Virus record (IMG/VR): IMGVR_UViG_3300010049_000010
Coordinates: 64,749-128,748 of that record
Source: a virus
Lineage: Duplodnaviria > Heunggongvirae > Uroviricota > Caudoviricetes
Reading direction: 5' to 3' (one strand)
DNA: 64,000 nucleotides
Shown here: positions 2,148 through 45,202 of the stretch, in pieces
Layout of the letters: each line of letters opens with the position of its first letter
How positions within the stretch are numbered: position 1 is the stretch's first letter
Notes under the pieces: generated by a model
Told to the model about the DNA's origin: nothing
The model's database searches: none
The model's input: the letters and a program-made list of their open reading frames with translations, nothing else
Position numbers and translations under genes: made by a program

Positions 2148-2687
2148 ATGAATAGTTTCTATAATGACTTAATCAATAACAATACTTTAGCGCCTCTTCA
2201 AGAGGAACAGCTAAAAGAATATTACAATCCAACAAGTTTAGGTGAGCATGACATAAAGATATTACAATCTATATCACATTCATCAATTCGTGCTATTGAA
2301 ACGACAATCGGAGCCTTAACTCACTTAGCTTCTAATCTTAAGATTTACAAAGATTGTATGATCGCTTCAATTAACTTACAAGCTGAAAGCGCGGACATTG
2401 CGACAAAATACACAAAAGAAATACCACAACAAAGCAACATATTACCCGGCATCGTTTCAGCCCCACAATCATTTGATTTATCTGCAATTAGAACTGATAA
2501 TGAAAGGATGATGAAAATTAAGAAAGATAAGGATAAGATCCAACAGCAAAAAGACACTTATTTAAGAGTGGCTAAAGAAGACGTTAGATTATTTTTATCA
2601 GCTTGGAAAAAATTAAATATTAGCAATGCTGCCTTTGACGAGTTCATTGATAGCTTAAATAAACAGATAACAGATGGGGGTTATTAA
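2148..2687 (+). CDS. hypothetical protein (179 aa)
   Basis: ORF preceded directly by the conserved box taactaattatt-ATG. Confidence 0.5.
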   Translation: MNSFYNDLINNNTLAPLQEEQLKEYYNPTSLGEHDIKILQSISHSSIRAIETTIGALTHLASNLKIYKDCMIASINLQAESADIATKYTKEIPQQSNILPGIVSAPQSFDLSAIRTDNERMMKIKKDKDKIQQQKDTYLRVAKEDVRLFLSAWKKLNISNAAFDEFIDSLNKQITDGGY

Positions 2688-3433
2688 TGAGAACGTTTAA
2701 ACAAATATTAAGAGAAGCAGTAGATTATAAAGATGCAGAAGGTTTTGATATAGATAAACCTTACGTTATTGATAATGAGGGAAATAGGGGAAATATAACT
2801 TTTGATGCGAATGATTATTTTGAGGCTGATGAAGATTCTCAATTCTATGAAGATGATGATGTTATGTTTGGAAATCAAAAAACTGAAAAGTTTAGAATGG
2901 AACACGATGATTTAGATTCAGATTACTGGATGCAGTGCGGTCTTTGGGAACAATTACCTGAAAGTGATGAAGCTGTTTTTGAAGCATTTATTGACGGTGA
3001 AATTGATCAAGAAGAAGCTACTAAAATTCTTGTATTTTCATATCACTGGGAATTAGAAGATGCTGAAAGAGAATTAAATGGTGGCGGTGACGCTCTTGGT
3101 GACAATTATATAAATCATATTAAAGGAAATAGATCACAACAAGCTACTTGGAAAGCTGCGGGCTTAGATGATGATTCTATTGGAGATGGTTCTCAATTTG
3201 ATGATGATATTTATGAAGATGAAGATGACGACTATGATGATGGAACACAATTTGATCCAAACCCAAGAAGTCCAGCAAAATATGATTTGATGGACGACGC
3301 GATGGACATTGACGATATGGAAGATGACTTTTATGATGACGAAGAAGATTATGATATAGGTTCACTTGACAGTGGAGATGGTTGGGATGAATATGACGAT
3401 GACGATGACGATGATGAAGACTGGGACGACTAA
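2687..3433 (+). CDS. highly acidic protein, MRTFKQILRE family (putative packaged internal protein)
   Basis: Its N-terminus MRTFKQILREA is shared with the ORFs at 43845, 44717 and 12967. The C-terminal half is extremely D/E-rich (…DDDDDDEDWDD). Confidence 0.55.
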   Translation: MRTFKQILREAVDYKDAEGFDIDKPYVIDNEGNRGNITFDANDYFEADEDSQFYEDDDVMFGNQKTEKFRMEHDDLDSDYWMQCGLWEQLPESDEAVFEAFIDGEIDQEEATKILVFSYHWELEDAERELNGGGDALGDNYINHIKGNRSQQATWKAAGLDDDSIGDGSQFDDDIYEDEDDDYDDGTQFDPNPRSPAKYDLMDDAMDIDDMEDDFYDDEEDYDIGSLDSGDGWDEYDDDDDDDEDWDD

Positions 3434-4275
3434 TGGCGATATTTAAGTGTGAGGGTTGTAAAAAATCTGAATCCTTTTGTGAAAATGTATGTTCAGAATT
3501 AGATGGTTGGACTTGTGATATTTGTGAAGATGATTTTCAAGCTCATGAAAATGACGTTCCATCTATAGGCGATAAAGTTTTTTGCAGTGAAGAATGCTAT
3601 GAAAAAGGCGTATATAAATATAAATTAGGAGAAAATATGAATAAAGAATCAATGTTCAATGAAATATATAAAGATTCTCTAAGAGAGGGATTTTTTAAAG
3701 ACGCGGCTGCGAGTATTGCGCAAGAACTTCCATTTGATAAGCCTAAACAATGGGCGAAAAAACATTGGAAATCTGCTTATCCAGAAGAATATGCAAAATT
3801 TGAAGCTGATAAAAAAGAAAAAGATAGATTAGAAAGAGAAGCAAAAGAAGCTGAATATGCTGCGCTAGAATTGAAAAGACGTGATGAATATGAAACAAAA
3901 TATCCAGGTAAAAAAGAAGAAAGACTTAGAGATGAAAAAATCAAAGAATTTTTAAAAAGTGGAACTTGGGATGGTTACTTAGGATATAATAAGCCTAATG
4001 ATTGGAAAGCTTATTTAGATGATCATTGGAAAGATCTTAAAGATGAATTTAATCTATCAAGTGAAAAAGCTGTTAAATCAGCATTTGTACGTTTTATGAA
4101 AGAAACTGGTCAAATTTCATCACAAATACATGCAACAGCTTGGAAAGCAATTGCGAATAAAGAACCTTTATATAAAGGCAAGAAACGAGTTAAAATAAAT
4201 GATTATTTAACAGGTGAAGAGCCAACAACATTATCAGAATCATTTGCATCAATTTACAGGAGAAGCAATGGATAA
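3433..4275 (+). CDS. Cys-rich (zinc-binding-like) N-terminus, K/E-rich protein
   Basis: N-terminal cluster CEGCKKSESFCENVCSELDGWTCDICEDD…CSEECYEKG; the start overlaps the upstream stop (ATGA-type coupling). Confidence 0.5.
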   Translation: MAIFKCEGCKKSESFCENVCSELDGWTCDICEDDFQAHENDVPSIGDKVFCSEECYEKGVYKYKLGENMNKESMFNEIYKDSLREGFFKDAAASIAQELPFDKPKQWAKKHWKSAYPEEYAKFEADKKEKDRLEREAKEAEYAALELKRRDEYETKYPGKKEERLRDEKIKEFLKSGTWDGYLGYNKPNDWKAYLDDHWKDLKDEFNLSSEKAVKSAFVRFMKETGQISSQIHATAWKAIANKEPLYKGKKRVKINDYLTGEEPTTLSESFASIYRRSNG

Positions 4276-4894: not shown

Positions 4895-4925
4895 CTATCT
4901 ATTATTAAAGGAGCGTTGAGGCATA

Positions 4926-6955: not shown

Positions 6956-6987
6956 TTCATTAATATGAGCTCTTAAAACTAAATAAT

Positions 6988-12309: not shown

Positions 12310-12331
12310 GTTTTTGATCTCACTAAATAAT

Positions 12332-12967
12332 ATGCAAACATTTAGTGAGATACATAAACAACATCTTAAAGAATTATACATACCCATAGGTTGGAAAAAT
12401 CCTCAAATTATAAATAAAGACACTGGTGACGTTTTAGATATTAAAATAAATAAAAAATTAAATAATATTCCATCTAAGCCAAATTGGGATCATGCTAATC
12501 GTGGAGGTTTTACTGACGCATATCGTCTTGTAAAGGACGCGGCTATAGACACAACTTATGGGTTTGAGTCCTTTTTAATTTTAAGCAATGAAGAAGATGA
12601 TGAACCAATTGGAGTCATTTCATTTAAGACGAGTGATGAATTAAATGGCGCGATGAAGCTTATATTAGACGAAAATGTTGATTGGGAATATGACCCTATT
12701 GCTGATTGTATAGTTGAAGCATATTTAGTTGGATTTAAAGAAAATAATTTTACTTTAGTAAAAGACATGTTTAGACTATTAGATCAAATGATTGAAAAAT
12801 ATGAATATATTGGTTGGTCAGTGCATAATAACGCGCCTGTAAAAAAGATATATGATAAAGTTTACAAGTCTAAAAAATATGAGATGTTTACAAGCAATCC
12901 TAGTTGCGATAAATATTCAGGTGAAGCATATACACAATATGTAATATTAGGAGATGGAAATCTATAA
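12332..12967 (+). CDS. hypothetical protein
   Basis: The start was moved to the ATG abutted by cactaaataat (MQTFSEIHK…), because the track start at 12314 is a TTG inside that box. Confidence 0.45.
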   Translation: MQTFSEIHKQHLKELYIPIGWKNPQIINKDTGDVLDIKINKKLNNIPSKPNWDHANRGGFTDAYRLVKDAAIDTTYGFESFLILSNEEDDEPIGVISFKTSDELNGAMKLILDENVDWEYDPIADCIVEAYLVGFKENNFTLVKDMFRLLDQMIEKYEYIGWSVHNNAPVKKIYDKVYKSKKYEMFTSNPSCDKYSGEAYTQYVILGDGNL

Positions 12968-13683
12968 TGAAAAGTTTCTCAGAAATATTACAAGAACAAA
13001 AATATAATAATACGAATAGAATTTATTATCATGGATCTAGAGATCCAAATCTTGATCTAAAAAACTTTTTCAAAAGAGGAGAAAATAATGCTCAATGTTT
13101 TTATTTAACTCCTACATATGATTATGCAGTTCAGTATGCTCGAAACAAACAAGAGATGGCACTGGCTTATAGATCAGATGCAAGTGTCGCTTCTGGGGAT
13201 GATTCTGCTGTTTATCATTGTAAAATAATTAAACCTCTAAATATTTGTAATGCTAAATCTAAAACTGACTATGAATTTCTATTACATGAAATAGAAAAAT
13301 TATTGTTTTACATAAATGATAATGATAGAATTGAACGACCTGAGGGTTGGTTAAAAAGAGCATGCAAAAGAGCTGCAGATCAACTTGTTTTTAGATTTAA
13401 GGAAGAAGATTGGATTGAAGTTATTCATGATGAAAATAACAGAGAACATGAATTGTCTTTTCCAATGAGAGATAAAATAATTGACGCTATTAAAAAAGGT
13501 GGATATGATGGTTATTATAATTTTGAAACGGAAAAGGATGAGTGCGGTCCGTCAATTGGAATTTTTTCTGGAGACTTAACTTCAAAAATAAAAATATTAC
13601 GAAAACAAATAATTAGATATAAATTATACAGTGACCCAGACGAGGATCCTAGATACTTTCGCCAGTACGGAAATTGGCAATAA
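12967..13683 (+). CDS. hypothetical protein, weak member of the MxxFxxILxE N-terminal family
   Basis: N-terminus MKSFSEILQEQ resembles the MRTFKQILREA family. Confidence 0.5.
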   Translation: MKSFSEILQEQKYNNTNRIYYHGSRDPNLDLKNFFKRGENNAQCFYLTPTYDYAVQYARNKQEMALAYRSDASVASGDDSAVYHCKIIKPLNICNAKSKTDYEFLLHEIEKLLFYINDNDRIERPEGWLKRACKRAADQLVFRFKEEDWIEVIHDENNREHELSFPMRDKIIDAIKKGGYDGYYNFETEKDECGPSIGIFSGDLTSKIKILRKQIIRYKLYSDPDEDPRYFRQYGNWQ

Positions 13684-13686
13684 AAA

Positions 13687-13717
13687 AGCCCGCATTGCTG
13701 CGGGCTGGATATTTTTA
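13687..13717. terminator. bidirectional rho-independent terminator
   Basis: 8-bp stem agcccgca/tgcgggct with loop ttgc, flanked by an A-run on the 5' side and a T-run on the 3' side. It lies between convergent genes. Confidence 0.65.
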
Positions 13718-13729
13718 AATAATTTTAAG

Positions 13730-14128
13730 TTACACGATTTCTGGAAGGTCGGCGAGTTCGCCATTGCCATCAACTGGGTTCACTTCTTCGACAGTGAAAA
13801 GTTCCGGCTGGGCATTTTTCTTCGCTCTGCGAGCTGATACCTTGCCGTTAACCTTGATTGAAAGGGCCGCGGTAAACTTTGCCTTTGCAGCATCGCGTTC
13901 GGCACGTGCTTCTGTGATAAGGGCGAGCCTTTCATCGCGTTTTGCCTGGCGTTCTGCCTTGCGGGCTTCAACAGCGGCGACGTAAGCGAGCTTGTTTGCA
14001 TCCTTGAACGCATCCATCTGTGTTTTGAGCAGGGCGTTGATTTCCGCGCCGACCGCAGGATTCTTTGCCATTTCTGTAGCAAAAGCCGCAAACAATTTTT
14101 CTGTTCTGTCTCTAAGATCTTTTCTCAT
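13730..14128 (-). CDS. basic Ala/Lys/Arg-rich small protein on a GC-rich (about 50%) island; putative nucleic-acid-binding protein
   Basis: The ORF exactly spans a roughly 400-bp block whose GC content is close to twice that of the flanks. Charged helical sequence (KAERQAKRDERLALITEARAERDAAKAKF). Confidence 0.5.
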   Translation of the reverse strand: MRKDLRDRTEKLFAAFATEMAKNPAVGAEINALLKTQMDAFKDANKLAYVAAVEARKAERQAKRDERLALITEARAERDAAKAKFTAALSIKVNGKVSARRAKKNAQPELFTVEEVNPVDGNGELADLPEIV

Positions 14129-14215
14129 TTTTCATTCTCCTTGAATGGTTGTTTATATTAGGTTTCCCTGATAATAATATATAAGATTTTTAGAAAAGCC
14201 GTTCAAAAAAGAAGT

Positions 14216-15089: not shown

Positions 15090-15110
15090 AATATTTAGTT
15101 ACTAACTAAT

Positions 15111-16982: not shown

Positions 16983-17891
16983 TTACAATTTGGCGTTAAA
17001 TTCATAAAATCCTCCAGGAATGTTCATAACAAATTCTAAATTAGTTCCGTTTTCAACATTCCATTTTTCTAATTCTTTTTTAAGCTTAAACTTATTTATA
17101 TTTATTTCTCTTCCGTCAGAATATGACTCGCCTTTAGTTAAATCTGATTCATTTAATTCTATTTCCATTCCAATTCCAAAATAAGGTTCGCGATGGATTT
17201 TAACTACTTCATTTAATAATGCGTACACTACATCTTTTTCTTTTTTGAGCACATACATATCAATTGAGTCATGAACATAATTAAACACTCTAGATCTAAA
17301 TCCCCATTTTTTGAGATGCATATTTATACAAGTAACGTCAGGCATTGCGTGAACGATTTCAGCAGTTTGAATAGATGTATTACTGGCTACATTTTTTAGA
17401 TTAGAAAACATTTTAGAATATAATTTTCTGTCAATGCCAATTAAATTACCTTGGGCATTTTTAGACATTAATCTTAATTCTGGTAAGTGTCGAACTGGAC
17501 CAACCCAAGTTCTAACGTAACCATGTTTCATCGCGAACTTCTGTTCTCTTTCTACTCGCTCTAATAATGATGGATAAGTTTTGAAAAATAATTCTCTTAG
17601 TTTATTTCCCAATATAACGTATTTTAATTCTTTTTCGCTTAATTTATTTGTGGGATTTAATTTAGCTTGATTATATGCTTGCCAAAGATTGAAACTATCA
17701 AAAGCAGTTTCACAATCATCTTCAGTGAAACCTGCAGCTTTCATTTGTCTGCCTAATGTCGGACCTTGACAAGCAAATAATGTTGCAAGACCTACAGTTT
17801 TACCATTAAATCTCATCTGTTTAAATGGACTAAATTTTTTCAATTTGAGAAAGTCTTCCATTGTCATATCACGTTTTGTTATCTTATACAT
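16983..17891 (-). CDS. family-A DNA polymerase, C-terminal fragment (fingers O-helix plus palm motif C)
   Basis: KQMRFNGKTVGLATLF matches motif B (RRxAKxxNFGxLYG), and YVHDSIDMYV matches motif C (VHDE). Confidence 0.75.
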   Translation of the reverse strand: MYKITKRDMTMEDFLKLKKFSPFKQMRFNGKTVGLATLFACQGPTLGRQMKAAGFTEDDCETAFDSFNLWQAYNQAKLNPTNKLSEKELKYVILGNKLRELFFKTYPSLLERVEREQKFAMKHGYVRTWVGPVRHLPELRLMSKNAQGNLIGIDRKLYSKMFSNLKNVASNTSIQTAEIVHAMPDVTCINMHLKKWGFRSRVFNYVHDSIDMYVLKKEKDVVYALLNEVVKIHREPYFGIGMEIELNESDLTKGESYSDGREININKFKLKKELEKWNVENGTNLEFVMNIPGGFYEFNAKL

Positions 17892-18144: not shown

Positions 18145-18479
18145 GATAACTCACTTAATCCTTTGAAATAATCTATATTTTTTTGCATACATTCCATTAC
18201 GTATTCTAAATCTTTAATTTTTTCTTCATATTTTGATTTCATTGCCTGTAATTCAATATCCTCACAAGAAATAAAATTATAACAAGGTCCTTCATTGGGA
18301 TATGAATCAGGAGTCGCGACATTACAAAATGAAATAGATTTAATATCTCCCATTTCAAAACTTATATCACAATCATGTAGTTTAATAAATGGAGTATTTG
18401 CGTTTGCTGGATTTCCAAAAAAGATATTGTAATGTTTAAGCATAATCAATCCACTCATCTGTTTGTTGGAATTCCGCAC
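18141..18479 (-). CDS. small protein located between the two polymerase fragments
   Basis: ORF only; I see no HNH, GIY-YIG or LAGLIDADG motif. Confidence 0.4.
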   Translation of the reverse strand: MRNSNKQMSGLIMLKHYNIFFGNPANANTPFIKLHDCDISFEMGDIKSISFCNVATPDSYPNEGPCYNFISCEDIELQAMKSKYEEKIKDLEYVMECMQKNIDYFKGLSELS

Positions 18480-20541
18480 CCTTAATTATAATTTCATCTT
18501 CCTCATCAATCATTCCGTATCTTTTAACTTTTATTTTTTGTGTTTCACCAAAGATAATTTTCTTTCCAGTTTCTTCACATTCAATTTCAATTACTTTAGT
18601 ATGAATTGGTTTAACAAAAGTTCCAACAGTTGTAGCTGAGTGAGCATCTTTATGTCCCTTTTCACCGTAGATTTCATAAGCAATTTGATCCACTCCGCCT
18701 TTGCTAATTCCATTATCAGCGAGTGCAAGACGAAATTGAAGTGAAGCAAAGTCGGCGGAAATTACAAGCCACTCGTCACTGTTATGTGATTCTGGTTCTC
18801 CAATTAAATCATCTTCTAATTGAGTAAGATTAGGCGGAGCTTCAAATAATTTCTTAATATGTTTAGCGATAGTTGAACCTGATGGTATTTGTTGAAAATT
18901 TGGATCATTCATTGCGTGGCGGAAACTTTCTGTACCGAATGTATTACAATTCGGATGTATTCTCCAAGTTCCATCTTCATGTTGCACCATCCATTTTCTC
19001 CAACCTTCAATAAATGTTCCTAATGCAACGTTATATGATCTAAAGTCTTTAAGTGTTTTAATTCCCGGAAGATTCAATAATTCATACTCATTAAGAACTG
19101 GGTCACCTGTTCCATATCCTCCGGCTTTTGATTCTGAGACTTTTGGCCATTTCATTTTCTCAAATAAAGCGCCTAATTCTTTTGGAGATTCAAATTTATA
19201 ATTTTCATCTACATTCCAAACTTTGGCTAATTCTTTTCTTAATTCTATTATTTTATCTCTAATTATTTTTTCAGACGCATCAAATTTTGCTGGACTAAAA
19301 TATATTCCTTCATATTCTACTTCAGTAACAGTGTTTGCGTTTGGTATCATTATTTCTTTATAGAAACGATTTATAGTCCATTCGGGTTGTTTCTCATTTG
19401 GGAATTTTTTATCTAACCATTTGCAGTGTTCATCGAGCGCTAACTGTAATCTCCAAGTCACTATTGGATCTAAACCGGCATATTTACAAAGCACCCCTCT
19501 CGGAATTTCGAGATAATTATTTACTTTTAATTTCTTTTTAATTTTATCTAATTCGTCATCATAGCCTATAAACTTTCCACAATAAAATACTGCCCCAGTT
19601 TTTAATCCCTTCGGCCTTCCTGAATTTATCGCATGAGATAATAAAGCCGTATCATCTGTTGGAAACCAACCTTTAACACCGTTCCACCAAATAAACTTCA
19701 TATCGAACTTTGCGTTAGATAAAGTGATTCGTCTAGCAGAAGTCAGTACTTGTTTTAATATTCTTTTATCTACAAGTTCCCAAGGTAATACGAAGCCGGT
19801 ATAACCATCATTGCTAAATTGAATATAACCTAATTTATCTCGTATAAAATGGAAACCGCCTGTTTCTGTATCAACTGCCAATAATTCAGAATTGACAAGT
19901 GATTTTAATATATCAGAAGCTTCTTCTTTAGAATTGGCCAAGACGATACTATAATCTCTATCATCAAGTGATTTAGTAGTCATATCATCATTTTGAATTA
20001 ATTTTAATCTTGAACGAAAAGTTTTAGTAAAGAAGTTAGTTGGATCATTTCCCAATTGAATCGGATATAAATCTTTAATGTTTGCGACTGGATAAATCCA
20101 TTTGTCGGGACCGCCAATAAATTCCGAACCGCAAAAATATCTTGGACTATTCAATTTATCATCAATAAATTCATAATAGTTTACGTCACCTGATTTGTTT
20201 AGAATACGAATTGTTGATCCGAAAGCGATTATACATTCGCATTCTGTTTCATCAAAACTTAGATATTGTCTCCAAGGACTTTCAATTGAGAGTAAAAATG
20301 TAGTTGAATCTTCTTTTGGATTTTTTACAGATATTGCAGATACAATATTATATGATTTAATACCTGCTTTAATTATATCTTTTTCTAAAGTGTCTAAATA
20401 TATTTTTGATAAAATATCATCAACCAGAAAGAGATAATATTTCTCCCCTGGTTGATATTTTTCGCGTAATAAGCAATCATGCTTTTCTAAATTTTGTTTA
20501 GGTTTTTCCGTTTGTCGAACGCCACCAAAGTTAAATGCCAT
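18436..20541 (-). CDS. family-A DNA polymerase, N-terminal fragment (3'-5' exonuclease plus palm motif A)
   Basis: Exonuclease motif I LLAVDTETGG, motif II SNAKFDMKFI and motif III KYAGLD. The pre-motif-A signature NTFGTESFRHAMNDPNFQQIP matches TGRLSSxxPNLQNIP, and motif A is VISADFASLQFRLAL. Confidence 0.8.
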   Translation of the reverse strand: MAFNFGGVRQTEKPKQNLEKHDCLLREKYQPGEKYYLFLVDDILSKIYLDTLEKDIIKAGIKSYNIVSAISVKNPKEDSTTFLLSIESPWRQYLSFDETECECIIAFGSTIRILNKSGDVNYYEFIDDKLNSPRYFCGSEFIGGPDKWIYPVANIKDLYPIQLGNDPTNFFTKTFRSRLKLIQNDDMTTKSLDDRDYSIVLANSKEEASDILKSLVNSELLAVDTETGGFHFIRDKLGYIQFSNDGYTGFVLPWELVDKRILKQVLTSARRITLSNAKFDMKFIWWNGVKGWFPTDDTALLSHAINSGRPKGLKTGAVFYCGKFIGYDDELDKIKKKLKVNNYLEIPRGVLCKYAGLDPIVTWRLQLALDEHCKWLDKKFPNEKQPEWTINRFYKEIMIPNANTVTEVEYEGIYFSPAKFDASEKIIRDKIIELRKELAKVWNVDENYKFESPKELGALFEKMKWPKVSESKAGGYGTGDPVLNEYELLNLPGIKTLKDFRSYNVALGTFIEGWRKWMVQHEDGTWRIHPNCNTFGTESFRHAMNDPNFQQIPSGSTIAKHIKKLFEAPPNLTQLEDDLIGEPESHNSDEWLVISADFASLQFRLALADNGISKGGVDQIAYEIYGEKGHKDAHSATTVGTFVKPIHTKVIEIECEETGKKIIFGETQKIKVKRYGMIDEEDEIIIKGAEFQQTDEWIDYA

Positions 20542-24034: not shown

Positions 24035-24400
24035 TCATCCTTCTCCATCACCTGTGACGATAATTAAGTCGTCTTTAGTTTTTCCAGTTATTTTTAATAA
24101 TTCTTTTATTTCTGTTTTCTCATGTATGTCTTTAATAGGAAGCACCATTTGCCCAATGCAGCAGTCTTCATAATCTATATGAAGCATTGTAGCTCCAATA
24201 TATTCTTTATCATCAACCGTTTCATGCTGTAAATTTAAATGGTCAGAAAAAACATAATATGGCCCACTGTTAAATTTATCTTCTAAATTTTTATCCGTAT
24301 TATATTTTTCAATAATGTCTTTTATATCGTCAACTTGAATCGCAACTAAAATAAAACTACTTGCAGAACTATTAGATACGAAGCCATTTCTTATTTTCAT
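24035..24400 (-). CDS. MKIRNGFVSNSSASSF-family protein (paralog 2)
   Basis: Shared N-terminus. Confidence 0.55.
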   Translation of the reverse strand: MKIRNGFVSNSSASSFILVAIQVDDIKDIIEKYNTDKNLEDKFNSGPYYVFSDHLNLQHETVDDKEYIGATMLHIDYEDCCIGQMVLPIKDIHEKTEIKELLKITGKTKDDLIIVTGDGEG

Positions 24401-24409: not shown

Positions 24410-25585
24410 TTATGGAAGCATTTTAGCTACAACGGCTTTAATATCAGGATTTTCTATAATTATAGAAATACCATTAGGTTGATCCATTTTAGTAGACGAA
24501 TATTTAATAGTAAATGTTTCATATTTATTTAACATATTTTCTAATATCTTAAAGTGTTGCGTTGGAATAATGAACTCAAAATCATCTTTTCCATCTGTAT
24601 CAGCAGTAATCTCAACAGGTAATACAGTTCTAATTTCTACTTCCATATTATCATAGAATAATTCTATTTCTTTATTTTTCTTAAATCCTTTTGGGGTTCG
24701 GAAATTAACTTGAGAATATCTCCAAGATGTAGAATCAAATACGCCGTCAAATTCAGATATAACTTCAAAGAACTTTTTCGTATTTATTTCAGTTGTGATT
24801 AATTTTGTGTCTACTGGGCAAATTGCGTCTAGATCTTGTTCAGTAGGATAAGTCCAACTAAAAGTTTTCGGCACAAATATAATCTGTATTCCATAATTTG
24901 CAATATCAAAATAGAAAAATTTCTTATCAGATGATATCTTAAATGAATCAACGTTCTTAAATAACGATATAATATCTCTATCAATTAAGATTTCTTCTGT
25001 TTTTGGCACTGATTTTTCTTTTGCGCTAATAATACAAAGATTATCAGCCGTTTTAATATAATTTTTACCAATCATTATTTGATGATTAGTGTCTTGAAGC
25101 TTTGTAACGTTAGCTAAATCAGTCATTACGTCTTTTGACGTTAAGCTTATTTCAATAGGCGCTTTGAACTCAGGCAACGCTAATTTAGTTTTTATATTGT
25201 TTTGGATTTCTTTAAGAGCAGCTGCATCTAATGATGATGATATGAGAGCTTGATTTATTACTATTTTACTAGTCTTTGATTTAACTGTCATTTTATCATT
25301 TGCGATAGAGATGTTGATTTCATCAGACTTAGTTTTCTCTAAATAAGTAATAAACTTAGATAATTCTAAACTAAATGATAATTCATCTTTACTGTCAACA
25401 TCGAAAGCAGCTTCTATGTGGCCCGCTCCTGCCGTATCAGCAATTCCGTAAATCAGTAATTTATTCTTGTTAAGAATAAAAACGTGCTTTTCAGCGATTG
25501 GAGAAAAATTCTCCATTTTTTTAATGTAATCTGATAATACTTTTAACCGACTTATTTGGTCTTTTTTAATTATGAACTCTGTCAT
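24410..25585 (-). CDS. possible DnaN-like sliding clamp
   Basis: 391 aa. The N-terminal pattern (ISRLKVLSDYI … KLLIYGIADTAGAGHIEAAF) resembles a beta-clamp domain I. AGGAG Shine-Dalgarno site. Weak call. Confidence 0.35.
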   Translation of the reverse strand: MTEFIIKKDQISRLKVLSDYIKKMENFSPIAEKHVFILNKNKLLIYGIADTAGAGHIEAAFDVDSKDELSFSLELSKFITYLEKTKSDEINISIANDKMTVKSKTSKIVINQALISSSLDAAALKEIQNNIKTKLALPEFKAPIEISLTSKDVMTDLANVTKLQDTNHQIMIGKNYIKTADNLCIISAKEKSVPKTEEILIDRDIISLFKNVDSFKISSDKKFFYFDIANYGIQIIFVPKTFSWTYPTEQDLDAICPVDTKLITTEINTKKFFEVISEFDGVFDSTSWRYSQVNFRTPKGFKKNKEIELFYDNMEVEIRTVLPVEITADTDGKDDFEFIIPTQHFKILENMLNKYETFTIKYSSTKMDQPNGISIIIENPDIKAVVAKMLP

Positions 25586-25859: not shown

Positions 25860-25881
25860 AGAGTTATATTAACTAATTATT

Positions 25882-36896: not shown

Positions 36897-38147
36897 TTAT
36901 GAATTTATGTTCAAACCTACTAACTTCCCAAGTTTAGTGTCTTCTTTAACAAGTTTTAATAAATAAGGGTTTGATTTAGCATCAAAAATATTTTTAGATA
37001 AATCAGTAATTGATCCATCTTTTACTGCCATATTATATAATTCAGTTCCTTTATAAATAATAACAGAACAATAAAAAACTCTATCAAAACCAATTTGTTG
37101 TATCTCTGGGATATTATATCTTACATCATTAATATTGTCCCATGGAAATCCAATTAGAACATTAGAACGAACTTCAAAATCATATTGTTGAAATAATTTA
37201 ATCACATATTCTAAATTATCTAATTTTGTTAGACCTAATTTTCCTACATTTTTCATTGAGTCAAAAGATACTGAATCAAGATTAAGACATACAACACAAA
37301 TTTTTGAATTATTTCTATCACATATTTCACTATATAATCTGACAAGATCTTCATCAACCATAGTAAAATCAATATCTAAAAAATATATTTTGCAATTTTT
37401 TTCTTTAAGAAATTGCATGATAGTCATCCAATATTCTTTTTCAGCCCAAGGCACATCATCTAATATAAGAAACGATTGAGCTCCATTATCTATGTAATAT
37501 TGTAAATCTGAAATTACTTTTTCTATAGATGGATATGACCTAATACAATTTCTTATTAAAGGATTTGGACAAAATACGCATGCATTTTCGCATCCTCTAG
37601 TAATCATAATAGGCATGTGTTTTTCTATTCTTTGAATAGGTTTTAATATATCTAAATCTTTTAAAACATAATTATAAACATTTTCTTTTCTCATTGTATA
37701 CCAATAAGGAGTATTTAGTAAATATTCTTTTTTGTTTTCAGCTTCAATAAGTTCTTTCATCGGAACTTCACCCTCACCCATACAAATACCATCAAAATAT
37801 TGAATAAGTTTTTCTTTTTCTATATTAGAATAATATCCGCCCGCTACAATAAGAGAATTTTTATATCTTTTCTTTATTTTAGTAATAAATTTAATAAGTC
37901 TTTTTTCATCATTTGGAATAAAAGAGAGAGATACTCCTACAATGTCTGGTTTCCAAAAAATGAATTTAGGAGTTCTATATATTATTTCAAATTTGTTAAT
38001 AATATCTGAACAAAATGATTTAATACATTCTAATCCAAAATGAAAAAATTTGATAGAGAAAAAAACTTTATGAAATGAATATGCGAGAAAATGAAATAAA
38101 TCAAATAAAGTAAATTTATTATAATATTTTATTAGCAATATATTCAT
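36897..38147 (-). CDS. B12-binding-domain radical SAM enzyme (paralog A)
   Basis: N-terminal Rossmann-like cobalamin-binding region (…SLIVAGGYY…GEGEVPMKELIE) and a CX3CX2C motif (GCENACVFC). Confidence 0.65.
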   Translation of the reverse strand: MNILLIKYYNKFTLFDLFHFLAYSFHKVFFSIKFFHFGLECIKSFCSDIINKFEIIYRTPKFIFWKPDIVGVSLSFIPNDEKRLIKFITKIKKRYKNSLIVAGGYYSNIEKEKLIQYFDGICMGEGEVPMKELIEAENKKEYLLNTPYWYTMRKENVYNYVLKDLDILKPIQRIEKHMPIMITRGCENACVFCPNPLIRNCIRSYPSIEKVISDLQYYIDNGAQSFLILDDVPWAEKEYWMTIMQFLKEKNCKIYFLDIDFTMVDEDLVRLYSEICDRNNSKICVVCLNLDSVSFDSMKNVGKLGLTKLDNLEYVIKLFQQYDFEVRSNVLIGFPWDNINDVRYNIPEIQQIGFDRVFYCSVIIYKGTELYNMAVKDGSITDLSKNIFDAKSNPYLLKLVKEDTKLGKLVGLNINS

Positions 38148-39360
38148 CTTTATATAACCTTTTAGTTTCTTTGTTTATTACAAGTTTCTTGTATTTAATT
38201 TTGGTCCAAGGAGATACTGCAATAAGTTGTTCATCATCAATTAAGTTTTGTTTTTTAGCTTCATTATAAAGTTGTGTTCCATAATATAATTCTAATTCAG
38301 CTAAATTATAACTATCAATATTATATTCTTTTACAAAATCATTTATTAGTGGGGAATAATCTATATTTTCTTCCCATGGAAATCCATAAATAAAAATAGT
38401 CTGTACTTTTAATTTATATCTTTGAATTAATCTTATTTTTTCTTTAAAAATTTCAAAAGTTCCAGGTTTTCCCGTTTTATTAAAAAATTCCTCTGTCGGA
38501 ATACAATCTATATTAAGAGCAATTGCTGATTTAGATTTATTACAACCAGCATAAGAGTTTAAAATATTTTCAGTAATATAAATAAAATTATTATGTAATA
38601 CATATGCGGTAGCTTTATTTTCAGTTATAAAATCTAAAGTTTCACACCACAATTTTTCATTTTTAAAAGGACTATCATCTATAAAGAAAAAACCTTTAGC
38701 TCCTTTTGATATATAATATTTTATATCTTCTTTTACTTTTTCTATTGATTTCTCTCTATATGGCGGCGAATTATCAAACTTACAATAAATGCATTTTTCT
38801 GGACAATTTTTAGTAATAGTTAAAACTACTTTTTTACCAGTAAATTCTACTGGTTCTAATAAGTCTAAATCTTTCATAATATATGAACTAAAATTAGTTT
38901 TATTTTTAGTGTACCAATATGGTGTTTGTTCTAAGTAAGCTTTTTTATCAGTAGCTTCTAACAATTCTTTAAATGGTATTTCTCCTTCTCCTAAACATAT
39001 AGCATCTACATAATCTATAAATTTTTCTTTCATCACTTCAGCATACATTCCACCTAAAATAATAAGAGAATTAGGAGATCGTTTTCTTATTTTTTGAAAT
39101 ATTTTTATATTTCTATTATGATCATTATGAAGAATAACCATTGATATTGCAATTATATCGTAATTTTTCTTAAACTCAAAAAACCACGGCATATAATCAA
39201 ATATCTTCATAAAAGCAGTTGTATGTTTTTTACAATAAGATTTTATAGTAAGAAGTCCGTGATTCTTAAAAAAATTGTCAAAATTTATAAGTTTGAACAC
39301 TATCTTAAAAAATAAAGAAAGACCATTTTTATATAAGTTTCCTATCATCAATACTTTCAT
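38119..39360 (-). CDS. B12-binding-domain radical SAM enzyme (paralog B)
   Basis: Same architecture as paralog A: …SLIILGGMY…GEGEIPFKELLE plus CX3CX2C (NCPEKCIYC). Confidence 0.65.
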   Translation of the reverse strand: MKVLMIGNLYKNGLSLFFKIVFKLINFDNFFKNHGLLTIKSYCKKHTTAFMKIFDYMPWFFEFKKNYDIIAISMVILHNDHNRNIKIFQKIRKRSPNSLIILGGMYAEVMKEKFIDYVDAICLGEGEIPFKELLEATDKKAYLEQTPYWYTKNKTNFSSYIMKDLDLLEPVEFTGKKVVLTITKNCPEKCIYCKFDNSPPYREKSIEKVKEDIKYYISKGAKGFFFIDDSPFKNEKLWCETLDFITENKATAYVLHNNFIYITENILNSYAGCNKSKSAIALNIDCIPTEEFFNKTGKPGTFEIFKEKIRLIQRYKLKVQTIFIYGFPWEENIDYSPLINDFVKEYNIDSYNLAELELYYGTQLYNEAKKQNLIDDEQLIAVSPWTKIKYKKLVINKETKRLYKDEYIANKIL

Positions 39361-39493
39361 ATAATCTATATTAACTTTATATTTTATAAATTTTAGTATG
39401 AAATTTCTTTCCTTTTTAAAGATAAATTTAGAAATGCAAGAATTTGCCGACTAAACGGCTTTTTACAATAGATAATTCATTAAACTAATTATT

Positions 39494-42400
39494 ATGTATA
39501 CTTTGCGGGAAAGATATGAACAAATCAAGTTACGAGAAGATACTCACAGTTTGCATGTAGAAGACAGTCTTCTTAAGGGAAAAGATTATATAGAGAGAAT
39601 GCTAGGTTTCTTTAATCATGCTTTAGAGATAGTAGAGGGAAGTGATGATAGTAGTCAACCTAGACCTACAATTAAGTATGATGGAGCGCCTGCAATCGTA
39701 ATGTGGTCACAAAGAGAAGACATCAATGAAAGTTATGGTATTAGCACAAAGTCACTTTTTAACAATAATCCTAAATATTATGGTTCTGACGAGGAAATAG
39801 ACGCCGACAAAGATCGGGCTGATAGTCTTAAAATTAAGATGAAAATGGCTCTTAAATTAGCAGCTGAAAAGATTATTCCAGAGGGTGAGATTTGGCAAGG
39901 CGATTTGCTTTGGACAGCAGGTGATATTAAGAGCATAACTGATGATGGAATAAATTACGTTATTGCAAAACCAAATACTTTAGGATATGCAGCTCCAGCC
40001 GATTCAGATGTCGGTGAGAGAATGAAGAATAGCGATATTGGCATTGTATTTCATACGAGATATAAAGGTCCACTTGATGAGGTTAAACAGTCTAATGATG
40101 TGGATATTTCCGAGTGCAAAAATATACCAGATTGGGCATTTATATTTGACGCGAAGCTTCCCGATTTAAGGGGGAAAGTAACTTTTGATTCTAATGCGTC
40201 TCGTGGACTTAAGAATAGTATTGGAGAATTAAGAAGAAAATGCGCTGATTTAATGGACCACGAAAATTATGATGATTTAGTAAGCAATGAAGATTTTATC
40301 AATTTTTATATGATGACTCTTCAAAACCACAAAATAGACAAAGGTGAAAAAATTGATCCTGAAACTTTTAAGGAAGAACTTCATGATTGGATTAATGTAA
40401 AAATGCACAAAAAATATAATGACTTGAGCAAGTTAAAAACGAAAGCTGGCAGAGATAAAAAGCGAGACACTATTTTATCTACTAGCAGAGAATTACATTA
40501 TATTTGCAGAGAAAATGGAGACTTAATTCACAGTATAGCAGACGCATTATATTGGGCGACTTATATTAAGGGAATTTTGATAGAACAATTTAACAAAGCT
40601 CAAGAATGGATAACCAAGGTTGAAATGAGATCCGGAGGATGGAAGAACACCTCAGGCGAAGGATTCATGATTAGCGATAATGATGGAAAATTTGTTAAGT
40701 TTGTAGACAGATCTGCATTCAGTTATTTTAATAGGTCATCTGAAGTTGTAAAGGGCTTTGAAAGAATAACGGAAAGCGAAGAAAATAAGTGGAATAGGGA
40801 TGAACGCCTTGGCAAAGTTGGTCTTTATGATGATGATGATTGGCATGAAGCAATAGAAGATGATGATGAAGATAAAAATACTGAGGTTGATGAAAATGAA
40901 CAAGTTATTGAAATTGAAACAGAATTATCAGTAGAAGAAATTGAAAATATATGTCTCCGTGTTTTATCTGAAAGTTTAAGAGAAGCTTTTGAGATGGTGG
41001 ATACAGATAGCATTGAAAAAAGATTAAAAGCGATTAAGAGTGATAAATCTGTTACTTGGGTTTGGATAGAAAAAATAAATAAAAAAGCTAAAATTCATTA
41101 CTCAAGAGCAGAAAAAAAACCATCTGGAGGAAATTGGATAGAAGTTAAAAGAAAAGTTGAAATGTCTAATTCATCTAAAAAACCAATTGATAATTCAGAA
41201 AGATTTTTAATTAATAAAAATAATGATCAAAATAAAAATTTATGTTTAATTATAAAAAATATTTTAATTCCGAACATAGAAGACTGGTCTATTTGGAAAA
41301 ATATTGGTTTACAAATAAGTAAATCAGATTCGAGTTCATCTATTTTAGTTAATGTTTGGAAGGACGATGACCCTTTAGGTGGAAATGAAATAGAAGAACT
41401 CTCACTTGGTTTAAAAGGAGTGGATGGTGAAGATTGGTCTTGTAGTGATAATAAAAATAAAAGATTAAGTTTAACTTATAAAAAATTTACAATAAATTTT
41501 AGAAATACAGGTGGAGGAAAAGCAACTGTTATTTATTTTGATAAAAATGGAAACTTAAAATCAATTGAAAAATCATCAAATAAATTTAGTGATTCTGTTA
41601 TTACATCTATACAAGAATCATTAACAGGATTATTTTTAACAATGTCTTTTAATAATGATAAATCAAATTATGCTAAATATGAAAAAATATTATTAACGAT
41701 AGATAATCCTATTTTTGTTAAAAACTTAGTTCAAAAGGATTCAAGCACTTTTAATGTTTCAGGTTTTTCTAATGTTTTAAATTCTTGGAGAGAATCAATA
41801 AAAAATAGTTCTTCTGAAATAATTAAAAGAAAAATTCTAGGTTCATATAAAAAATTATCAAGTGGGCAATGGAAAATAATTCATCCAAGTCTTTATAAAA
41901 CTGACGATTCATATCTTAATTCTATTATTGATTTTAATCCTTATTTAAGTAGACATCTTTTTTCTAATTTTAATTATAAAAATATAATGAGTAGAGATAC
42001 TGCAAATCCTGCAGATATATTTATTATTAATACTGGAACATCATCTTATGATAAATCATTATCTTATGATAGTTTAATTGAAGATTTAAATAATTTAAGA
42101 AAAGATCAATTATATAAAAAAGGTGGAGAATTAAAAAGTTTAACAAGTGTTACCGCATCCACTGAAAATATAAGAGATGCTTTTGTTGCTACACTTAATA
42201 AATATTTTGATGCCGGAATTCTTATTGGAATAAGTTTAAAGAAAACTACTAAAAATGCTAATGTAATTAAATCAGCAACTCATAATTCTTTAAGTGAAAA
42301 TTTAAATAAAGATGATTTATCTTGTTTTGTTTTTAATGATAACAAAAATGATACAATAAAAAGTTTTTCTTTCTCAGGACCACCATATTTAAATAAACAA

Positions 42401-43009
42401 AATAAAAATAATGGAAAAAGTGCTTATTTAATTATAAATGTAGATGGAAATCATCTACATTTAGGAAAAAATATTGCAGAATTAAAAATGGATATTAGAA
42501 TTCCAAGTAGCGGTAATATAAATTCTCCTCCTGTTTCTGAGATAATAATGAATCAATCAGAAGCTAGATTTGGAAAATCTACTGAAGCAGTTAGACTTGT
42601 TTTAAATAATTTTAGAAAAAGATATAAATCAAATATTGCTTCATATATTACAAAATTTTTAAATCAAGAAAATGTTACTTTACGTGAATCTTTAAGATTA
42701 TTTGAAGAAGTTTATAATATATCAAATCGTTTATATGAAGATGAAGATGAAGATGATACTCCAGATAATATTAATTTAAAAGGAAGAATTGATGAAAATA
42801 AAGTGAAAGCTTTAAAAGCAAATTTTTATTTAAAATGTTTAATTCAAGAAATAGGTGGAAGTGTTTCTAATAATAATATAAATTCTTTAATAAAAGAGAA
42901 CTTAACTAAAGTTTTTGCACGTGGCATGAAATATAAGATATATTCATTAAGAACAAAATTATTTGAAAGTTTTAATAATGGTGTAGTAAATTATTTTAAA
43001 ATATTTTAG
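39494..43009 (+). CDS. giant protein (1171 aa): N-terminal RNA/DNA-ligase-like nucleotidyltransferase domain, an acidic linker, and about 600 aa of N/K/S-rich low complexity
   Basis: Motif I TIKYDGAP (KxDG), motif IV GEGFMI and motif V KFVKFVDR. The C-terminal half is compositionally extreme. Confidence 0.45.
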   Translation: MYTLRERYEQIKLREDTHSLHVEDSLLKGKDYIERMLGFFNHALEIVEGSDDSSQPRPTIKYDGAPAIVMWSQREDINESYGISTKSLFNNNPKYYGSDEEIDADKDRADSLKIKMKMALKLAAEKIIPEGEIWQGDLLWTAGDIKSITDDGINYVIAKPNTLGYAAPADSDVGERMKNSDIGIVFHTRYKGPLDEVKQSNDVDISECKNIPDWAFIFDAKLPDLRGKVTFDSNASRGLKNSIGELRRKCADLMDHENYDDLVSNEDFINFYMMTLQNHKIDKGEKIDPETFKEELHDWINVKMHKKYNDLSKLKTKAGRDKKRDTILSTSRELHYICRENGDLIHSIADALYWATYIKGILIEQFNKAQEWITKVEMRSGGWKNTSGEGFMISDNDGKFVKFVDRSAFSYFNRSSEVVKGFERITESEENKWNRDERLGKVGLYDDDDWHEAIEDDDEDKNTEVDENEQVIEIETELSVEEIENICLRVLSESLREAFEMVDTDSIEKRLKAIKSDKSVTWVWIEKINKKAKIHYSRAEKKPSGGNWIEVKRKVEMSNSSKKPIDNSERFLINKNNDQNKNLCLIIKNILIPNIEDWSIWKNIGLQISKSDSSSSILVNVWKDDDPLGGNEIEELSLGLKGVDGEDWSCSDNKNKRLSLTYKKFTINFRNTGGGKATVIYFDKNGNLKSIEKSSNKFSDSVITSIQESLTGLFLTMSFNNDKSNYAKYEKILLTIDNPIFVKNLVQKDSSTFNVSGFSNVLNSWRESIKNSSSEIIKRKILGSYKKLSSGQWKIIHPSLYKTDDSYLNSIIDFNPYLSRHLFSNFNYKNIMSRDTANPADIFIINTGTSSYDKSLSYDSLIEDLNNLRKDQLYKKGGELKSLTSVTASTENIRDAFVATLNKYFDAGILIGISLKKTTKNANVIKSATHNSLSENLNKDDLSCFVFNDNKNDTIKSFSFSGPPYLNKQNKNNGKSAYLIINVDGNHLHLGKNIAELKMDIRIPSSGNINSPPVSEIIMNQSEARFGKSTEAVRLVLNNFRKRYKSNIASYITKFLNQENVTLRESLRLFEEVYNISNRLYEDEDEDDTPDNINLKGRIDENKVKALKANFYLKCLIQEIGGSVSNNNINSLIKENLTKVFARGMKYKIYSLRTKLFESFNNGVVNYFKIF

Positions 43010-43018
43010 GAGATTAAA

Positions 43019-43858
43019 ATGAAAAAGATTAAAGAAATTTTAGCACTAGAATCTCCAATAGTTAACGCTTATAAAAAACAGCTCGACCTAATTAAATCTG
43101 CCGAAAAAAGAAGAAAATTAGAAAACTTACTAAGAACAGCAGCTCATAAAAATATATCTGGTCAAGCAAGCTCAACAGGAAAATATCATCCTAAGTTCGC
43201 TAATTCTGAATTTGGCTTGTCAAAACATACTAAAGCAGTAGTTAGAATTGTTCAAGTTATTTGCACAGTATTTGAAGAATTAGACCCTGATGTTATGATT
43301 ATAGCGGCTATCGCACATGACATGTTTAAATACGGAAGTGAAGACGCAGAACATACTTCTTGGGCTCATGCGAAAGACGCAGGAATGGCTTTACATCAAG
43401 TTGGATTAAAAGATGAAGCTAGACTTGTATATTGTCATATGGGAAACTTTGATAAAAAAGCAGCAGCACCAAAAGAATTAGACGAAAAATTATTACATCT
43501 TGCTGATTATATAGCAAGTCAGAAATTTATTAATATCAATTTTGATAAGGACCATAATTTATTGGAGGAAGATATGAAATCATTTATGCAAATATTTAGA
43601 GAAGCTCATCCATATCATGATAGTAATCGGCCAAGAGATAGTAAAAAACATGTAGGGATGCCTAAGTATATAATTCACAATGATTACTTATTAGAAAAAG
43701 ATGGTAAAGAATATTGTGTAGTAGAATATTTTCCAAGCGCATCATTTAATAAAAAGAAACATCATTATAATCCTACGCCAATTTATTCACATTGGTTAGA
43801 AGATAAAAGACTAATTGCACAAGCAGATAAGGCAGTAAAAGAATATGAAGAGTTTTAA
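43019..43858 (+). CDS. HD-domain phosphohydrolase
   Basis: H … HD motif (IAAIAHDMFKYG); paralog of the ORF at 57229..57810 (shared SSTGKYHP motif). Confidence 0.6.
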   Translation: MKKIKEILALESPIVNAYKKQLDLIKSAEKRRKLENLLRTAAHKNISGQASSTGKYHPKFANSEFGLSKHTKAVVRIVQVICTVFEELDPDVMIIAAIAHDMFKYGSEDAEHTSWAHAKDAGMALHQVGLKDEARLVYCHMGNFDKKAAAPKELDEKLLHLADYIASQKFININFDKDHNLLEEDMKSFMQIFREAHPYHDSNRPRDSKKHVGMPKYIIHNDYLLEKDGKEYCVVEYFPSASFNKKKHHYNPTPIYSHWLEDKRLIAQADKAVKEYEEF

Positions 43859-44717
43859 ACAAATATTACGAGAAGCTATAAATCCCTATGGTTCAGATGA
43901 GGGATATAATGATACTTGCGCAATAGCAATATCTCCTAGAAAAGAAGTTTTTTATCTTTCAGCATACCATCAACATGAAGGACTTTTAGAAAAATATTTT
44001 GATGATTTAGAAGGTGATGAATTATTAAATAAATCTTATGAAACAGGTTGGATAAGAATAAGAGTAAGTCATCATAAAAAGTGTATGATTTTTATAGATA
44101 TTTCTAGATTTAATAAAAAAAATTTAGAAACTCTATGGGACTTCTTTATGGATATGGATGATTTAAATTCTCGATTAACGCATTTTGATTCTGAAGATGG
44201 GGGCCCAAATGAATATAGTCCAAATATAAAAAAATGTGAAAATATTTATATTACTGAAAATTATAATGATAAGATTATTACAATAAAAACAAATTTTAAA
44301 GATATTATAAATTTAAAATTAGAAAATCAAGAATATAGATTAAATAATGTTACTGCAAATATAAAACCACAAGAGTTATTAGATAATTATACCTTTGAAG
44401 AAAGAAAAAAAGAAACTTCAAAATTTAAAATGAAACGTAATTTTATTTATATGTTTGATAAACATAATAATCTTTTAAATAAATGTTTACGTTTTGATGG
44501 TTTTGATTTAAGTTATGGAAGGGGCTCGCGTGATCCATCTAAGTTTACTAAAACATACTTAAATAAAAATCTTTACGAATATTGGTTTGGTGAAGCTTAT
44601 GAAGGCAAAAACGCAGAAAAAGCTGAATATGCAATCTTAAATGATATTAAATTTGAAAATTTAGATGAATTAAGAGATTATTTACAAAATGATTTTGATA
44701 TAAAGGATTTAAATTAA
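43845..44717 (+). CDS. MKSFKQILREA-family protein
   Basis: Shared N-terminal decapeptide. Confidence 0.5.
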   Translation: MKSFKQILREAINPYGSDEGYNDTCAIAISPRKEVFYLSAYHQHEGLLEKYFDDLEGDELLNKSYETGWIRIRVSHHKKCMIFIDISRFNKKNLETLWDFFMDMDDLNSRLTHFDSEDGGPNEYSPNIKKCENIYITENYNDKIITIKTNFKDIINLKLENQEYRLNNVTANIKPQELLDNYTFEERKKETSKFKMKRNFIYMFDKHNNLLNKCLRFDGFDLSYGRGSRDPSKFTKTYLNKNLYEYWFGEAYEGKNAEKAEYAILNDIKFENLDELRDYLQNDFDIKDLN

Positions 44718-45202
44718 TGCGAACATTTAAACAGATATTACAAGAAAGCACTGATGAATGGTTTATGACTAAGAAAAAAGTCTATACAATACAAGGAAGA
44801 ATATCTAATAAAACAGAAAGATATAAAAATAAATTAGAAGGTAATTCTTATGATATGTCTGACCCTCAATATGCAGATGATGAATGGGTAATTTTAAAAG
44901 GTACTGTAGGTGAACTGTGGCCTAATACTTTAGCTAAAACTTGTAGGACATATGGGGTAACTCCAGAAGATTTTGTTGAAGGCGAGTGGATTGACTTAAC
45001 TACACAAAAAGAATACGCATTTACAAATTGGGCCAAAATGAATACTGAACATATTGATTTACCAACAATGCATAATACTATGCATGGAAATCCTGGTAGT
45101 TATCTTGTTTGCACATTAGAAGATAAAGAAAAGAAAAATCCTTGGATAATACATGAAGATGTATTTCCTAACACATATTATACTAGGAATGAAGAAATAT
45201 GA
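44717..45202 (+). CDS. MRTFKQILQE-family protein
   Basis: Shared N-terminal decapeptide. Confidence 0.5.
   Translation: MRTFKQILQESTDEWFMTKKKVYTIQGRISNKTERYKNKLEGNSYDMSDPQYADDEWVILKGTVGELWPNTLAKTCRTYGVTPEDFVEGEWIDLTTQKEYAFTNWAKMNTEHIDLPTMHNTMHGNPGSYLVCTLEDKEKKNPWIIHEDVFPNTYYTRNEEI

Follow-up and report, generated by a model that had tools for sequence, protein, structure and literature searches.

A shared N-terminal tag in an uncultured jumbo phage

The window analysed here is a stretch of 64,000 nucleotides (nt) from a tailed-phage record (IMG/VR IMGVR_UViG_3300010049_000010, positions 64,749 to 128,748). It corresponds to positions 199,648-263,647 of a 328,413-bp ENA metagenome contig, and therefore belongs to a jumbo phage that has not been cultured. 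The same ten-residue tag opens at least ten of its genes, which are otherwise unrelated. The consensus of the tag is M-(K/R)-(T/S)-F-x-(Q/E)-I-(L/F/Y/H), closing with [L/I]-x-E at residue 10 or 14. On balance, this shared N-terminus appears to be a propeptide of the type by which bacteriophage T4 directs proteins into its capsid. The sequence examined comprised the window and flanks of about 10 kb, i.e. 84 kb of the 328-kb contig.

Four of the carriers had been recognised in the initial annotation as genes sharing their first residues, with synonymous codon variation, and little else. All four open reading frames (ORFs) were recovered at the positions and lengths given there. They lie on the plus strand and encode proteins of 248 amino acids (aa) at 2687-3433 (MRTFKQILREAV; MRTFKQILRE/AV, the slash separating the tag from the residues behind it), 238 aa at 12967-13683 (MKSFSEILQEQK; MKSFSEILQE/QK), 290 aa at 43845-44717 (MKSFKQILREAI; MKSFKQILRE/AI) and 161 aa at 44717-45202 (MRTFKQILQEST; MRTFKQILQE/ST). 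The codons differ between copies (AGA, AAG or CGA at residue 2; ACG, AGT or ACA at residue 3), and without the tag the bodies of the tagged proteins have no significant similarity to one another. The membership of these four genes stands; the size of the family had been underestimated, the 14-residue class and the nested modules having been missed.

A six-frame scan together with inspection of the DNA revealed these further carriers, namely three ORFs with a 14-residue version of the tag and two nested modules. The 14-residue class retains F4 and I7, with L-x-E shifted to residues 12-14. It includes plus-strand ORFs at 12332-12967 (211 aa, MQTFSEIHKQHLKE/L), 45840-46448 (202 aa, MKLFENIYNQSLQE/N, then Cys-rich Zn-ribbon motifs) and 46451-46843 (130 aa, MKTFAEIYGKPLRE/M); the first two of them have ACTAAATAAT directly before the start codon. 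The nested modules are also on the plus strand. One occupies 3637-4275, in frame inside the ORF 3433-4275, with the tag at 3637/3652 (MNKESMFNEIYKDSLRE/G); it has its own Shine-Dalgarno sequence (GGAG-aaaat-ATG, with a 5-nt spacer), and a Zn-ribbon-like Cys-rich segment lies upstream of the tag. The other is a tag-led module of 94 aa at 43574-43858 (MKSFMQIFRE/AH), in frame within the HD-domain ORF 43019-43858 and likewise preceded by its own Shine-Dalgarno sequence (GGAGG-aagat-ATG). Residues 14-182 of this HD ORF align with the entire 193-aa paralogue at 57229-57810; as the alignment stops at residue 182, the tag at residue 186 opens a separate 94-aa module, fused in frame. A further tagged gene, on the minus strand, encodes a low-complexity, repeat-containing, P/A/G-rich protein of 447 aa. 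It spans 63019-64362 in window-equivalent coordinates (63019-64000 within the window), and its start, MKSFTDLVRE/YS, lies 362 nt past the window end. Counted together, the tag is carried by at least eight ORFs, two nested modules and this flanking gene.

The tag pattern fits seven of the 27 gene starts on the plus strand, none of the 63 on the minus strand, and two of 454 internal Met positions. At least six of nine N-terminal residues are shared by four pairs of tagged proteins and three pairs of the MKIRNGFVSN family, against none of 80,100 interior control pairs. The N-terminal sharing is far above chance.

Properties and homologues of the tagged proteins

The mature products are mostly acidic or neutral, with an isoelectric point of 4.0-6.6 in seven of ten. 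The mature 2687 protein consists of Asp and Glu to 36% and has a net charge of -73; for the mature 46451 protein the corresponding values are 31% and -27.

None of the tagged proteins significantly matches a named Pfam, PHROG or PADLOC family. The sole matches at E<=0.01 were weak ones to unnamed PHROGs, to Zn_ribbon_6 (the 45840 protein) and to a Cas12a profile, the last being probably a low-complexity artefact. Nor does any tagged window protein match an ADP-ribosyltransferase (ART) family of Pfam or PHROG. An assignment of the 12967 protein (YYHGS...) as an Alt-like ART was rejected on the evidence at hand, as a profile of the four ARTs of contig L010 described below aligns its tag alone. 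PDB sequence searches with seven window proteins gave nothing significant, and structure prediction without alignments for the 238-aa protein yielded an unusable model (mean predicted local distance difference test score, pLDDT, of 32).

No homologue of the 290-aa protein was found among 1.84 billion representative proteins, and a search of 5.8 billion proteins with the 238-aa protein returned only itself. The 161-aa protein has two homologues, P0002 and P0003, which are 60% identical to it and both retain the tag (MKSFEQILRESE, MKTFEQILRESE). P0003 contains a 21-residue insertion right behind the tag, as would be expected if the tag is a separate N-terminal module. A 40-aa profile of the tag searched against the set of 5.8 billion proteins gave only ten candidates.

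Distribution of the tag in other contigs

About 30 further contigs, viral or metagenomic, contain ORFs headed by the same decapeptide. These were sought with a strict back-translated pattern (ATG MRN WSN TTY AAR CAR ATH YTN MRN GAR); L numbers are the labels of loci or contigs in this analysis. The scan of IMG/VR returned 11 loci with 13 matches, all at ORF starts and no more than 23 residues from an upstream stop. The scan of JGI metagenomes returned 32 loci, six of which belong to a GC-rich bacterial family with the peptide internal; at the 17 placeable AT-rich JGI loci the matches lie no more than 23 residues from the upstream stop, except for one of the three tags matched in L046 (67 residues). 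In cellular genomes (one per species, 185,579 bacterial and archaeal species, 596 Gb) only seven loci were found, and the four that could be placed comprised a 14-codon ORF and three internal sites, located in a RecQ-like helicase and in members of the GC-rich family. Given viral matches at ORF starts as against rare cellular ones, the N-terminal tag is essentially a phage feature. The GC-rich family (L021, L024, L028, L035, L042, L052 and L056; GC 58-67%), from metagenome-assembled genomes of Chthonomonadaceae and from soil metagenomes, carries ...PQPDLSMKSFKQILQEIGTMERL... internally; the decapeptide there is an unrelated coincidence.

Among 33 distinct tags, Thr or Ser at position 3 is encoded by seven codons, Leu by six and Ile by three; Ser3 is encoded by AGY as well as by TCN codons, and six codons occur for Leu8. 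Nothing is conserved upstream of these tags except Shine-Dalgarno purines, and the tag-bearing contigs range from 25% to 45% in G+C content. That the residues stay constant across varying codons argues against an explanation at the level of mRNA or of recombination junctions, and points to selection on the peptide, not on the DNA. Position 11, which was free in the search pattern, is Ala in 11 and Ser in five of the 33 tags. M1, F4, I7 and E10 are invariant and L8 nearly so in 29 tags, although F4, I7 and E10 were preset by the search pattern for most of these, and their invariance is no independent test. The window's own tag variants retain F4 and I7.

Association of the tag with T4-type head modules

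In the other contigs, wherever the surrounding genes were readable, they proved to be head and neck modules of the T4 superfamily. Among 99 ORFs neighbouring tags in these contigs, the commonest PHROG families are the terminase large subunit (five to six ORFs), the portal (four) and the neck protein gp14 (four), followed by the head maturation protease (three), tail tube, tail sheath and ADP-ribosyltransferase (three). Placement in individual slots of the head module was determined by mapping with T4 and phiM12 reference proteins. A tagged ORF lies between portal gp20 and protease gp21 in L001, L011, L033 and L036, and between terminase gp17 and the portal in L006, which also carries gp21 and gp23, as well as in L031 and L047, the latter representing a more distant lineage. 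The gp16-gp17 and gp13-gp14 gaps hold tagged ORFs in L002 and L004; L002 has five tags and a terminase 55% identical to that of Sinorhizobium phage phiM12, and four tags surround gp13/gp14 in L046. Cultured phiM12 itself has a 135-aa ORF (NC_027204, 29851-30258) starting MKSFKQLVETVN, with MKSFKQLVE/T as its tag, between gp20 and gp21, a gap which is the slot of the T4 prohead core genes 67 and 68. A tblastn search of cultured phages with the tagged proteins of L002 and phiM12 found no homologues beyond their own groups.

On L010, a contig of 243.7 kb, four tandem paralogues of Alt-like ADP-ribosyltransferases come after a T4-type baseplate wedge gene (PHROG 219, E 1e-135); the N-termini of these paralogues read MKSFKQILKE, MKTYKELLEK, MKTLKELLEE and MITFKELQEK. 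The tag of the window therefore grades into the T4 form inside one family, and L010 appears to tie the two together on the same class of enzyme that is packaged in T4 by means of a capsid-targeting sequence (CTS). In all, a head-module or Alt gene context was observed in L001, L002, L004, L006, L010, L011, L031, L033, L036, L046 and phiM12.

Correspondence with the T4 capsid-targeting signal

The CTS that T4's internal proteins (IPs) carry, MKTYQEFIAE, is removed by a single cut and then exits the head (PMC8442874). In the suppressor analysis of Mullaney and Black (1996), as later reviewed, residues 4 and 7 were assigned to targeting (in IPIII) and residues 8 and 10 to processing, and T4 propeptides are 10-19 residues long (PMC9026906). 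In the T4 genome, gp24 starts MAKINELLRE followed by S, and a duplicated N-terminus of Alt reads MELITELFD. The window tag and the T4 propeptides have in common the pattern M-x-x-hydrophobic4-x-(E/Q)6-hydrophobic7-hydrophobic8-x-E10. The positions assigned to targeting in T4 are Y4/F7 in the IPs, I4/L7 in gp24 and I4/L7 in Alt, and F4/I7 in the tag. A putative sequence context for processing is also present, as L/F8 with E10 in the decapeptide class and as L12-x-E14 in the longer class.

The initial annotation had compared the decapeptide with the T4 capsid-targeting sequence and had noted an L-x-E context of the prohead-protease type. Both observations hold: the residue pattern matches and the same decapeptide sits in head and neck modules of the T4 superfamily, while the putative cleavage context (L/F8 and E10, or L12-x-E14) is followed by Ala or Ser in 16 of the 33 tags. 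The fit to the T4 signal runs position by position, which is more than a vague resemblance.

Gene content and other features of the window

The window encodes a family-A DNA polymerase that is split between two minus-strand ORFs, 16983-17891 and 18436-20541. One of these carries the exonuclease together with the initial portion of the polymerase domain (profile positions 7-152), and the other, about 550 nt downstream, its final portion (profile positions 239-369); two small ORFs lie between them. Other window genes encode an ATP-dependent DNA ligase, a PD-(D/E)XK-type exonuclease, an M23 peptidase, two radical-SAM proteins, a DUF6267 protein with a KxDG ligase-like motif, two HD proteins, a cytidylyltransferase, a NadR-like enzyme, a PnuC-like transporter, an RNA ligase and an AAA_33 kinase. 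A GroEL-like chaperonin, a fragment of a SAM synthetase and the start of a 4,569-aa gene are present only in the 10-kb flanks (L014 and L015). Genes for nucleic-acid repair and nucleotide metabolism are crowded at 39494-43009, 43019-43858, 45199-45828 and 57229-60628 (minus strand), and in the same flanks. No tRNA genes were found in the 64-kb window.

An operon head at 39494-43858, on the plus strand, consists of the DUF6267 ligase-like protein (MYTLRERYEQIKLRE...) followed by the HD protein (MKKIKEILALE...), and ACTAATTATT stands immediately 5' of the ATG at 39494. The N-termini of these two proteins bear only a loose likeness to the tag, and they form the context of the tagged cluster. The phage has its DUF6267 protein and its cytidylyltransferase in common with marine T4-like phages of the Kyanoviridae, Melnitz included. 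No close relatives of the phage were found among cultured phages by megablast or in IMG/VR by a scan with the DUF6267 protein. In Methylophilales phage Melnitz-3 (L012), a cultured T4-like phage, two genes around the DUF6267 homologue start in a CTS-like manner: a 361-aa gene directly upstream (at 12203, MQGFKTFLSEAK) and a 650-aa cytidylyltransferase gene one small ORF downstream (at 14914, MKKFSEIIEARG). T4-like marine phages may therefore carry tags on this same cluster of enzymes.

Several other recurrent elements were observed. The 10-mer ACTAAWTAWT occurs 13 times on both strands, as against 3.8 expected. Plus-strand copies lie at 2138-2147, 6978-6987, 12322-12331, 25872-25881, 39484-39493, 45830-45839 and 47820-47829, and minus-strand copies at 15090-15099, 28839-28848, 47335-47344 and 56845-56854. 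The element abuts an ATG start codon in ten cases, is one base away in one more (47820-47829), and stands where a Shine-Dalgarno sequence would be expected; it resembles a promoter or an initiation element that would serve leaderless or near-leaderless mRNAs at operon heads. A second element, AGTTAAT(n)TA, recurs upstream of other start codons at a distance of about 10-15 nt, namely those of 16983-17891, 18436-20541, 24410-25585, 38119-39360, 56368-56607 and 57229-57810 on the minus strand and of 47428 on the plus strand, and may represent a second promoter class. Three small minus-strand proteins (22958-23371, 24035-24400 and 30393-30677) share the N-terminus MKIRNGFVSNSS(S/A)SSF and little else. 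They constitute a second N-terminal-motif family in the genome and have no Pfam match.

An island of 51% G+C at 13700-14200, in a genome of 31.7% G+C, was probably inserted recently from a foreign source; its minus-strand ORF 13730-14128 encodes a 132-aa protein rich in Ala, Lys and Glu. A 407-aa protein encoded at 51727-52950 on the plus strand, downstream of a 1,090-aa protein and the M23 peptidase, gave weak and patchy phmmer matches (E about 0.03) over residues 224-321 to many histone H2A chains. The alignment runs across a low-complexity stretch, and this likeness is probably spurious; an AlphaFold model of the protein predicted without alignments was unusable (mean pLDDT 35).

Proposed capsid targeting and alternative explanations

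If the tag is a capsid-targeting propeptide, it would form a short amphipathic helix, hydrophobic at positions 4, 7 and 8, through which the freshly synthesised protein attaches to the scaffolding core of the assembling prohead. A prohead protease of the gp21 type would then cut behind the Glu of [L/I]-x-E, at residue 10 or 14 depending on the class. The tag would exit the head, and the mature protein would remain inside, either to be ejected with the DNA or, as a core component, to be degraded. In this way a single signal could load ten or more cargo or core proteins that are unrelated and evolve fast, two of them very acidic. That docking, cleavage and packaging also take place in this particular phage is rather likely, judging from the comparison with other phages. 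The tagged genes probably encode packaged or injected proteins, and the packaging interpretation offered in the initial annotation is partly supported, its backing from the comparison being strong. More tentatively, and with somewhat less than even confidence, a jumbo phage with non-T4 replication may use a T4-type tag for a diverse 'ejectome' of at least ten members, including extremely acidic proteins and enzyme-fused modules.

Several observations weigh against capsid targeting. Profiles of gp17, gp20, gp21, gp22 and gp23 found nothing in the window and its flanks, the 84 kb of the 328-kb contig that was examined; gp21 is present in other tag-bearing contigs. The polymerase is of family A and split, not of the T4-type family B, in a phage without a close cultured relative. 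The tagged genes of the window share operons with the DUF6267, HD and cytidylyltransferase genes, not with recognised head genes. Their mature products are mostly acidic or neutral, whereas the T4 IPs are highly basic (PMC8442874), and two of the tags are internal to longer ORFs. Finally, the strict tag is absent from the portal-protease slot of cyanophage S-CAM9, so the tag is not universal in the T4 superfamily.

The alternative that survives best, although it is unlikely, is that the tag marks parts of the prohead core or scaffold, which like T4 gp67 and gp68 would be degraded and expelled at maturation and not delivered to the host. In T4-like contigs the tagged ORF is most often found in the gp67/gp68 slot, and the 447-aa tagged protein is disordered, repeat-rich and scaffold-like. 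The 2687 protein also bears on this alternative. The initial annotation had taken it for a DNA-mimic-like protein, a proposal that found no backing in Pfam, PHROG or PADLOC, where the protein has no match, and for which its charge is the sole support. A DNA-mimic function is possible for it, but since a similar poly-Asp/Glu tail is present on T4 gp67, a role as a core protein is at least as likely. However, ten or more different core proteins would be unusual, the Alt-like enzymes of L010 are also tagged, and the tagged proteins of the window are fast-diverging ORFans, which are more typical of host-interaction proteins.

A little less probable still is that the tag directs proteins to another destination, such as a membrane, a replication compartment, a chaperonin or a protease adaptor, and that its likeness to the T4 CTS reflects convergence of amphipathic helices. 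The placement of the tagged genes in operons with enzymes rather than head genes would agree with this, as would the phage's own GroEL-like chaperonin and the lack of a visible protease in the 84 kb. Yet the decapeptide is embedded in head-morphogenesis modules of many independent contigs and grades into the T4 form on Alt-like paralogues, and no specific alternative destination is indicated. That there is no functional peptide at all, the likeness arising from AT-rich 5' codons favoured at translation initiation or from cassette recombination junctions, is very improbable: the genome has 31.7% G+C, the commonest tag codons (AAA, TTT, CAA, ATA and TTA) are AT-rich and two of the tag-led modules are joined in frame to upstream ORFs in a cassette-like manner, but the amino acids are held while codons vary (Ser3 from AGY and TCN, Leu8 from six codons), the upstream nucleotides are unconserved, the tag occurs in contigs from 25% to 45% G+C, and within one genome it is on seven of 27 plus-strand genes and none of 63 minus-strand genes.

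Significance of a conserved tag

The idea of a CTS dates back 30 years, and CTS-like N-termini of T-even relatives are known from the literature. The peptide MKTFKQ was not found in the literature searched, and the phiM9 paper gives no proteomic data on the 135-aa ORF of phiM12. Several aspects seem to be undescribed in the literature searched: the occurrence of one near-invariant decapeptide across phiM12, marine T4-like phages and a 328-kb phage with non-T4 replication genes, the number of tagged genes in a single genome, the 14-residue class and the fused modules.

Proteins injected with phage DNA act ahead of phage gene expression; T4 examples are the restriction inhibitor IPI* and the RNA-polymerase modifier Alt. 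Rapid sequence evolution makes such proteins hard to recognise. The tag, being conserved between Sinorhizobium phage phiM12, marine T4-like phages and the present phage, could serve as a marker. If capsid targeting is correct, sequence alone would suffice to predict packaged or injected proteins from a conserved tag, for example those with anti-defence functions, also where the phage is uncultured. In the present jumbo phage the tag would single out at least ten ORFans to be considered first for early anti-defence or host-takeover roles. The T4 CTS consensus also extends well past the T-even phages, which bears on the loading of cargo into other capsids by CTS fusion.

Comparison with known systems

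The phiKZ-like giant phages (SPN3US, phiKZ and 201phi2-1) resemble the present case in their jumbo setting and in having many head-internal proteins that are processed after Glu by a gp21-related protease. In SPN3US, the paralogues gp53 and gp54 have identical 15-residue N-termini, which have been called CTS-like (PMC5694885). In contrast to the tag described here, most propeptides of these phages exceed 100 residues, the motif at which they are cleaved is A/S/G-x-E instead of L/I-x-E, and no decapeptide is shared by unrelated proteins.

With regard to T4 gp67 and gp68, a small tagged ORF fills their slot in phiM12, L001, L011, L033 and L036, and the acidic poly-D/E tail of gp67 has its counterpart in the 2687 protein of the window. 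The bodies of these proteins have no sequence homology, the N-termini of gp67 and gp68 themselves (MEGLIEAIK... and MLLIPETHE...) fit the tag only loosely, and the tagged genes of the window adjoin neither portal nor protease.

The comparison with the T4 CTS itself has differences on several levels. The carrier is a 328-kb phage with a family-A polymerase and with no T4 core gene detected in 84 kb, and its cargo is mostly acidic while that of T4 is basic. The consensus is F4/I7/L8 with K5-Q6, compared to Y4/F7/I8 in T4; there is a second class with the cleavage motif at residues 12-14; and two tags open modules that have become part of upstream ORFs by in-frame fusion. At the same time, the two signals agree in their extreme N-terminal position and in length (10-14 residues here, 10-19 in T4), in the hydrophobic residues 4, 7 and 8, in Glu10, and in [L/I]-x-E followed by Ala or Ser. 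In both cases one signal is found on several unrelated, fast-evolving proteins of a single genome, and in contigs related to the present phage by the tag it occurs in the head module and on Alt-like ADP-ribosyltransferases, as in T4.

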